DNA of 64,000 nucleotides from a virus (Duplodnaviria; Heunggongvirae; Uroviricota; Caudoviricetes): IMG/VR virus record IMGVR_UViG_2579779105_000001; one strand, given 5' to 3'. Below, piece after piece: positions 26,803-27,869 of this stretch. The notes below the pieces were generated by a model. The model searched no databases. It was not told where the DNA came from and saw nothing but the letters and a program-made list of their open reading frames with translations. A program made the position numbers and the translations under genes. Each line of letters opens with the position of its first letter. Positions within the stretch are counted from its first letter, which is position 1.

Positions 26803-27840
26803 TTACCAGAGCTTTGCGGCGCGCTGCGTTTGGGGGAATGTGTATCCGTAACGTTCTTCGATTGCTTTGCCGTATTTTTTACGCGCTTCATTCAGTTTGA
26901 TGCCGGTCAGGTCGTCTCCAGAGGCCATCATTACGTCTAACAATTCCAGATCCATTTTATCCAGCCTTGCCATTGCTTCACGCGATGTACGAATCTTACG
27001 TTCAATGATATGGCGAATAGCCGGATCGGCATCCTCCAGCATCTTAGCTGATTTCTGCTTAAGGTTTTCGTTGCGGATATCGATGTTCCTTAAGATATAC
27101 GACTTCGCAACGTAGCTTGGCTGATGTTTTTCCAGGTCACGAACACGATATAAGCTAAAGTCGCCGAGAAGGCTGCAAGGCACCGATTCGACGCCAGAAT
27201 AAATTGTAATGCTACGGCGTTCACCAACATTATTGACAACGGGGATCGTTGTCTTCGGTAGTTTTGCGAAAACGAATGCGCCATGTGCGCCAACTCTAAA
27301 GCGAGAAAGGGCATTGCTGCCTTCGATGTTTGTTGTCAGCACAACATCTGTATATGCCTCTTTACGCGCCCGGTAGACCTCGCCTTCAGGCTCAGCTTCA
27401 AAGAAGCGCTGTTCTTCTTCAAGAGCACCTACGATTTGAGAAAAAACCCTATTTTTCAGGCTTTTCTTTATGATTTTGTCGTATTTTTTGAGCAATTGTT
27501 CACGTGTAAATGTACGTGTTGTTGTAGCGCTTTGCACAACAACATGCGTGCTTTGATTGGTGTCCTCAATGATGAATGGGATCGGAGAATATACAGACTC
27601 AACAATGTTAGACGCTTTGCCGTCAGCATTACGGCACAAGTCAACAAAGGCTTTCCATTCTGCGAGGCACTTTTCAGCTTCTTCTAGTACATTTTGGTCG
27701 TGTGTTAGTGCAACGTGGCGGAATTCCTCGCCAGCATAACTGGTATCATGGAAAACAGAGTTTGCGACCACCAGCTCTTTCCACCGTTCAGCGGTTTGCA
27801 GGAACCGTTTGTACTCTTTCTCGATCGACTTCTTACTCAT
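26803..27840 (-). CDS. putative C1-like master repressor (divergent)
   Basis: 345 aa convergent with pacB and facing the lox-like site, as c1 is in P1; exact operator 14-mer 16 bp upstream of its start; only weak recalled similarity to P1 C1. Confidence 0.4.
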   Translation of the reverse strand: MSKKSIEKEYKRFLQTAERWKELVVANSVFHDTSYAGEEFRHVALTHDQNVLEEAEKCLAEWKAFVDLCRNADGKASNIVESVYSPIPFIIEDTNQSTHVVVQSATTTRTFTREQLLKKYDKIIKKSLKNRVFSQIVGALEEEQRFFEAEPEGEVYRARKEAYTDVVLTTNIEGSNALSRFRVGAHGAFVFAKLPKTTIPVVNNVGERRSITIYSGVESVPCSLLGDFSLYRVRDLEKHQPSYVAKSYILRNIDIRNENLKQKSAKMLEDADPAIRHIIERKIRTSREAMARLDKMDLELLDVMMASGDDLTGIKLNEARKKYGKAIEERYGYTFPQTQRAAKLW

Positions 27841-27855
27841 TATTCCTACTCGATT

Positions 27856-27869
27856 TAGTTTTCTAACAT
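27856..27869 (+). promoter_or_regulatory. operator TAGTTTTCTAACAT
   Basis: Exact 14-mer also found at 45839-45852 and, reverse-complemented, at 40287-40300. Confidence 0.55.

Follow-up and report, generated by a model that had tools for sequence, protein, structure and literature searches.

In the 64,000-nucleotide stretch of Caudoviricetes DNA analyzed here (IMG/VR record IMGVR_UViG_2579779105_000001; hereafter the window), which can be identified as a D6-like plasmid prophage, we have examined c1, an intact, full-length open reading frame (ORF) on the minus strand (26803..27840) that starts with ATG and encodes 345 amino acids. The ORF itself, its identity with the c1 gene of phage D6, a match to PHROG 1678, profile alignment with hhalign and an AlphaFold2 (AF2) model all point to a D6-type primary immunity repressor. 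A Shine-Dalgarno-like AGGA, read from the sequence (27844..27847, minus strand), lies 3 nt from the c1 ATG and is the same in D6. The span given for this gene in an earlier note on the window ended at 27869 and so takes in the c1 5' leader together with a 14-mer, TAGTTTTCTAACAT (27856-27869). Fifteen nucleotides separate this 14-mer from the c1 ATG; counted from the A of the start codon, the closest base of the 14-mer lies at 16 bp, where the note had placed an exact copy.

The c1 gene converges on pacB, the gene for the terminase large subunit (25266..26774, plus strand). A G+C-rich hairpin in the gap between the two (26776..26794; 7 of its 8 stem pairs are G-C, and the minus strand carries a T-run) is likely their shared terminator. 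Upstream, approximately 210 bp of non-coding DNA separate c1 from a 32-bp rox-like site, TAACTTTAAATAAT-GGGG-ATTATTTAAAGTTA (28054..28085), with the same arms as D6 rox; beyond this site lies a gene for a Dre-like tyrosine recombinase, a homologue of Cre (28238..29266, plus strand; ORF and D6 record). The ORF map is thus in agreement with the earlier description of a 345-residue minus-strand gene that is convergent on pacB and faces a lox-like site. The same immC-type position, convergent with pacB and facing a lox-type site and a cre-type recombinase, is found in the window, in the P1 record, in D6 and in a relative whose C1 is 52% identical, as expected from the claim that c1 keeps its P1-like place; in that relative the order recombinase, rox, c1, pacB, pacA, lpa is preserved. 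The 4-bp rox spacer reads GGGG in the window versus TGGC in D6, in the same orientation, and the two sites may fail to recombine with each other because these spacers differ. The D6 spacer is kept in a more distant relative (L006).

The closest known gene, found with tblastn against phage records, is c1 of phage D6, which also encodes 345 amino acids and is 97.4% identical over its full length. This gene has been annotated twice, as a phage repressor protein similar to the C1 repressor of phage P1 (AAV84948 in AY753669) and as a prophage repressor (ASR76322, locus D6_1, in the complete D6 genome, MF356679). By its sequence, then, the window gene is an already known, annotated D6-type c1 allele and a distant relative of P1 C1. 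Nine mostly conservative changes distinguish its product from D6 C1 (V51I, L68M, N71D, V155I, F189L, K193R, S229N, N259S and R340Y). Since the two genes differ at 40 nucleotides, 31 of the differences being synonymous, and yet by only these 9 amino acids, c1 is under purifying selection. The neighbours pacA, pacB, rox and dre are common to the window and D6. The paper behind the D6 c1-region record reportedly describes, in its abstract, a deletion and a substitution in the D6 region relative to P1. The gene is also widespread: the nearest protein cluster, at 97% identity, has 326 member sequences, and 138 plasmids in PLSDB match the 8-kb region around c1 by megablast, 108 of them covering at least 80% of it. 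These plasmids come from Escherichia, Salmonella, Shigella and Enterobacter, and in many of them the gene is labelled a phage repressor.

The relationship with P1 C1 is far more distant. In a single-pair BLASTP comparison the two proteins share 20% identity over 242 residues (E 5e-8), which bears out the remark in the earlier note that only short patches are common to them. Despite an identity of approximately 20%, the homology over residues 7-242 is real. Profile-profile comparison, which the note had proposed as a check, aligned a D6-type with a P1-type alignment at 98.2% probability (hhalign, E 3.3e-14, 231 columns, residues 7-242 against 8-247). PHROG 1678 takes in both proteins over their full lengths, window C1 over residues 1-345 (E 1.4e-167) and P1 C1 with E 2.6e-140, and the Pfam family PF27008 (Phage_P7_repressor_C1) is precomputed on the 97% identical cluster and on P1 C1 relatives; hmmscan with a Pfam release without PF27008 assigned no family to window C1 or P1 C1. 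NF041318 (phage_rep_C1) of NCBIfam matches window C1 over residues 7-240 with 25.3 bits (E 9.6e-6). Thirteen residues are invariant in both subfamilies (F13, G37, R41, W62, P86, P88, I90, R157, R159, V183, G187, Y214 and C222). Window C1 is a homologue of P1 C1 without being its equivalog, in keeping with a distinct operator specificity.

When 1.84 billion representative proteins were searched with a profile, a C1 family of 133 clusters at 50% identity was found, with short forms of approximately 250-290 residues and long forms of approximately 345-365. The window protein has 345 residues versus 283 in P1 C1, and its residues 243-345 are extra, with no counterpart in P1. AF2 models of window C1 (predicted local distance difference test, pLDDT, 95.3; predicted template modelling score, pTM, 0.82) and of a P1-type C1 that is 98% identical to P1 C1 (pLDDT 94.5, pTM 0.82) are both confident and show their helices and strands in one common order as far as the long C-terminal helix, their likeness being judged by element order. 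In the C-terminal extension, a long second helix is predicted to pack on the last shared helix and to be followed by three short helices. We considered that this extension might be a fused Lxc-like corepressor and rejected the idea (hhalign probability 0.3%). A fold search of BFVD gave no significant match and recovered no C1 entry. By profile, predicted fold, position and operator set, the window protein belongs with the C1 family (PF27008/PHROG 1678). The central proposal of the earlier note, that of a far-diverged C1-type repressor at the P1 position, is supported by the profile homology, the common element order, the conserved gene order and the operator motif; its repressor activity is predicted from the homology and the placement of the motif.

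The 14-mer upstream of c1 has three exact copies in the window (27856, 40287 and 45839) and two more with 2 mismatches. Shuffled sequences are expected to hold 0.3 matches at up to 2 mismatches, and none of 100 shuffles reached five. It is part of a longer, dispersed, asymmetric motif with the consensus AAATTAATTTTCTAACAYAAWTTT and the core TTTTCTAACA. Thirteen strong sites for this motif occur in the window, all of them outside ORFs of at least 100 amino acids, and 11 of the 13 lie no more than approximately 200 bp upstream of a gene start. The genes behind these 11 sites are c1, lpa, repL, ref and its divergent neighbour, hrdC, pdcB, the operon after dre and an immI-type operon. The seed set from which the matrix was made did not include four of the sites later found (10687, 23418, 40301 and 55645). 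In D6 there are 15 motif sites, whose positions correspond to those in the window in all aligned parts of the genomes, and in the relative with the 52% identical C1 the motif core is again found approximately 20 bp upstream of c1, and also upstream of lpa. The operator map is a computational one of candidate sites, which stand mostly before the counterparts of P1 C1 targets.

The operator-like site at c1 (27852..27875, plus strand; core 27859-27868) lies between a weak promoter-like element and the ribosome-binding site, and D6 has its 24-bp frame at the corresponding spot, differing by a single base. The promoter-like element, TTTACT-17-TAGATT, runs from 27913 to 27885 on the minus strand; a sigma-70 consensus scan at standard stringency found nothing upstream of c1. 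Since the operator is placed between the c1 promoter region and the ribosome-binding site, autoregulation is implied. At lpa (start 23513) the site (23418..23441, plus strand) is approximately 70 bp upstream of the gene, placed as Olpa is in P1, and at repL (start 9677; D6 annotation) it is approximately 170 bp upstream (9487..9510, plus strand). A site on the minus strand (10687..10710) is directly upstream of c4 targets, a C4 RNA, icd and an antirepressor gene. Just downstream of it, Rfam identifies an a1b1 target element (10800-10852) and a C4 antisense RNA (10920-11005), and the region 10800-11005 can be recognized as a P1-type immI module. At the end of dre, a site (29265..29288, plus strand) precedes an operon of an orf117-like gene and dut by 50 bp. 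A further plus-strand site (45835..45858), at the ref end, holds an exact 14-mer and faces a second icd/antirepressor region, whose first small gene is approximately 50 bp away by mapping to D6; in this second region (D6 annotation; approximately 45835-46400 in the window) no C4 RNA was found at the Rfam threshold.

Three further loci carry pairs of operator-like sites rather than single ones. These are found upstream of pdcB (40281..40324; pdcB starts at 40245 on the minus strand), in the divergent intergenic region between ref and an orf89-like gene (45184..45227) and directly upstream of hrdC (55645..55688; hrdC starts at 55695), which in D6 precedes two DNA-methylase genes. In each pair the two sites stand head-to-head and are offset by the same 20 bp, which gives near-palindromes such as TGTTAGAAAATCAATTTTGATTTTCTAACA. 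The remaining site (18499..18522, minus strand, 31.6 bits), one of the strongest and with no obvious downstream gene, lies between a truncated pmgS-like gene and tRNA genes and is also present in D6; a weaker site is found at 18655-18678.

The operators of P1 provide the obvious comparison. The 17-bp asymmetric operators bound by P1 C1 are dispersed and number 22, and repL and lpa are under C1 control (PMC8546580); the P1 record annotates operators before lpa (Olpa) and before c1. Like P1, the window has dispersed asymmetric operators with a TCTAA core before c1, lpa, repL and the c4 operon. When compared with the P1 consensus, ATTGCTCTAATAAATTT, the window motif shares the TCTAA core and agrees at approximately 11-13 of 17 positions in the same orientation, differing mainly at positions 4, 5, 11 and 13; a search of the window for the P1 consensus itself, allowing up to 3 mismatches, found nothing. 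Related operators that share a core and differ in other bases fit related repressors with distinct specificities. Since the operator differs from that of P1 at approximately four positions, D6-type and P1-type phages would be heteroimmune. One operator was detected upstream of the window c1, versus five in P1.

The rest of the immunity region also differs from that of P1. In tblastn searches no homologue of coi, imcA or imcB was found in the window or the whole D6 genome (best E 0.34), and P1 Coi, ImcA, ImcB and Lxc gave only noise against the two (E at least 0.03). Three ORFs of 22, 34 and 58 amino acids occur between c1 and rox, none of them conserved; when compared with D6, the 58-residue ORF is broken by indels of 1 and 2 bp. 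These results uphold the earlier statement that no coi-like small ORF separates c1 from the recombination site. No second C1-like gene is present in the window or in D6. Lxc is also missing in a D6-like plasmid (PMC6799933). The region is therefore not a P1-type ImmC module, which consists of c1 with coi, imcA, imcB and an unlinked lxc.

Overall, we consider it highly probable that the gene is c1 of a D6-like phage-plasmid and that its product is the primary ImmC repressor, serving lysogeny and immunity against phages of the same type. For window C1 itself we infer DNA binding, repression, immunity and binding as a monomer. By homology with P1 C1, the protein would most likely bind an asymmetric operator of approximately 17-24 bp without a helix-turn-helix. 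Its operators would stand before early and lytic functions, namely lpa (activator of the late genes), repL (lytic replication), the c4/icd/antirepressor operon, ref, hrdC and pdcB. In the lysogen it would shut off lpa and, through lpa, the late genes; repL, the antirepressor operon and several accessory genes would be shut off as well. Through the operator in its leader, C1 would limit its own synthesis. The D6-type module would be simpler than ImmC of P1, lacking Coi, ImcA/B and Lxc and having instead a repressor with a helical extension of approximately 100 residues. It is tempting to speculate that this extension mediates self-association at the three paired operators.

Several observations weigh against this interpretation. 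The NF041318 score of window C1 (25.3 bits) is far below the 500-bit equivalog cut-off, which P1 C1 exceeds with 607.5 bits. The operator pairs in the window are head-to-head, whereas Oc1ab of P1 is tail-to-tail with a 6-bp overlap, and for the strong site at 18499 no likely target is apparent. Promoter matches near the operators are weak and not decisive (8-9 of 12 consensus positions in a relaxed scan), and the position-weight matrix was made from sites in the window, so that its scores are partly circular. A literature search that excluded the main D6 papers found no experiment on the window protein or on D6 C1, and it is from homology and motif placement that we infer the repressor role.

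The surrounding element resembles D6 in mosaic blocks of 88-98% identity. At the junction 17747-17765, approximately 3.8 kb of D6 (9823-13637) is missing. There, darB is cut to 1863 amino acids (ORF 12187-17778) and the pmgS-like scaffold gene to 210 (ORF 17871-18503), and ulx, pmgM and pmgR are missing relative to D6. Given this loss of approximately 3.8 kb, the prophage may be defective. In six stretches BLASTN finds no D6 match exceeding 300 bp (20673-21901, 30724-31259, 34679-39232, 41840-42782, 46416-47713 and 56600-58042); compared with D6, these represent mosaic replacements or insertions. Three tRNA genes identified with Rfam (19738-19888 and 21907-21979) lie at the place equivalent to the D6 tRNA cluster.

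The predicted structure of C1 gave an unexpected result. When each C1 model was compared with the PDB using Foldseek, the sole significant family was E. coli Tus, the replication-terminator protein, bound to Ter DNA (Pfam PF05472; PDB 1ECR and 4XR0-4XR2). The E-values were 4.4e-7 to 3.2e-6 for the D6-type model and 5.7e-10 to 4.2e-9 for the P1-type model; both matched with a probability of 1.00 over 304-323 aligned columns, with borderline template modelling scores (TM-scores) of 0.36-0.51, and the next unrelated match had an E-value of 0.15-0.4. The models are predicted to have the Tus fold of two alpha+beta domains with long interdomain beta-strands, and at 309 amino acids Tus is of similar size to C1. 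Tus binds as a monomer to an asymmetric site of approximately 20 bp, through its interdomain beta-strands. In early biochemistry P1 C1, too, is said to have behaved as a monomer on an asymmetric site, and to our knowledge no helix-turn-helix has been found in C1.

At the level of sequence, the signals are weak: they remain below threshold but are consistent in register. Window C1 has no Pfam hit to the Tus profile, its identity to Tus is 6-9%, and weak hits to the Pfam Ter profile occur in 2 of 84 C1 family members (best E 0.012). HMMER searches of PDB sequences with two C1-family profiles did not recover Tus, one profile giving nothing and the other coiled-coil noise. With hhalign, the C1 family matched Tus at 13% probability when a single sequence was used and at 35%, over 167 collinear columns, when an alignment of 17 sequences was used; the Tus sequences used were all at least 70% identical, which limits sensitivity. 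The C1/Tus pairs in this alignment include R41-R93, P88-P148 and R157/R159-K229/K231, and in many diverged members positions 178-246 of the Tus hidden Markov model align to C1 residues 105-172, with bit scores of no more than 11. The c1 operator read towards c1 on the minus strand, TATGTTAGAAAACTAAA, resembles the E. coli TerB core, TATGTTGTAACTAAA, except for two extra central bases; this may be chance in A+T-rich DNA, and Ter cores are not enriched in the window. The biological roles of the two proteins differ (promoter repression for C1, fork arrest for Tus), as do their target sequences. Papers that name Tus and the C1 repressor together were not found in the literature searched, which did not cover the Pfam description of PF27008. 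The tus gene is confined to a few gamma-proteobacterial clades and was probably domesticated from a plasmid gene (PMC6549158). As the models are predictions, the TM-scores are borderline and the sequences do not match significantly, we regard the resemblance as a lead. That the C1 family of 133 clusters is a remote relative of Tus, its members acting as monomers with interdomain beta-strands in the major groove of the operator, we put at slightly less than an even chance. Such a reading would explain the recognition of a non-palindromic site by P1 C1.

The resemblance to Tus also raises the question of whether C1 might act mainly as a polar roadblock, as a barrier to the replication fork or helicase, or in the control of plasmid replication, with the sites acting like Ter. 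The match of both models to Tus-Ter complexes alone in the PDB, over nearly the whole chain, would be expected from such a role, as would sites that are asymmetric and oriented and a c1 operator reminiscent of TerB. We nevertheless find it very improbable, since experiments have established P1 C1, a clear homologue, as a transcription repressor (PMC8546580) and the sites are all found in intergenic DNA that bears promoters, ahead of lytic and early genes, with none inside long operons. In addition, the three head-to-head pairs would block both directions, in sequence the resemblance to Tus does not reach the threshold (hhalign 35%, no PDB sequence match), and the window shows no enrichment of Ter cores.

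A different possibility leaves the motif to another factor (a second regulator, a host protein or an early-promoter element), with C1 having diverged to another role and retained only its fold and genomic place. The operators of window C1 are indeed predicted ones, the identity to P1 C1 is only approximately 20% with an NCBIfam score far under the equivalog cut-off, and the circuit of D6-type elements, which lack Coi and Lxc, is unlike that of P1. This explanation is hard to reconcile with a motif that keeps the TCTAA core and approximately 11-13 of the 17 P1 operator positions in the same orientation, that stands before the counterparts of P1 C1 targets, c1 included, and whose core is conserved alongside C1 in the relative with the 52% identical protein; moreover, neither the window nor D6 offers another C1-like gene. 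We think it just as improbable as a roadblock. Finally, the truncation of darB and pmgS and the approximately 3.8 kb missing from this possibly defective element could suggest that the ORF is a decaying pseudogene and the 14-mer a chance feature. This idea is already contradicted by the conservation data: the reading frame is intact and full-length, most nucleotide changes relative to D6 (31 of 40) are synonymous, the 97% identical cluster holds 326 sequences and 138 plasmids match the region, and the motif count was reached in 0 of 100 shuffles. We give it almost no credence.

The description in the earlier note is correct in every element, yet the gene was already annotated, so that the note by itself adds little. 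What is gained is an operator consensus and a map, with 13 sites in the window and 15 in D6, that make up a testable regulon. D6-type elements are common in E. coli and Salmonella, and the difference between their operators and those of P1 offers a molecular basis for the differing immunity of D6-type and P1-type plasmid-prophages. If the Tus-like fold is true, it would provide a concrete structural model for how C1 recognizes asymmetric operators. The C1 proteins would then also be the first relatives of Tus outside its own family, a finding that would bear on the origin of the replication fork trap.

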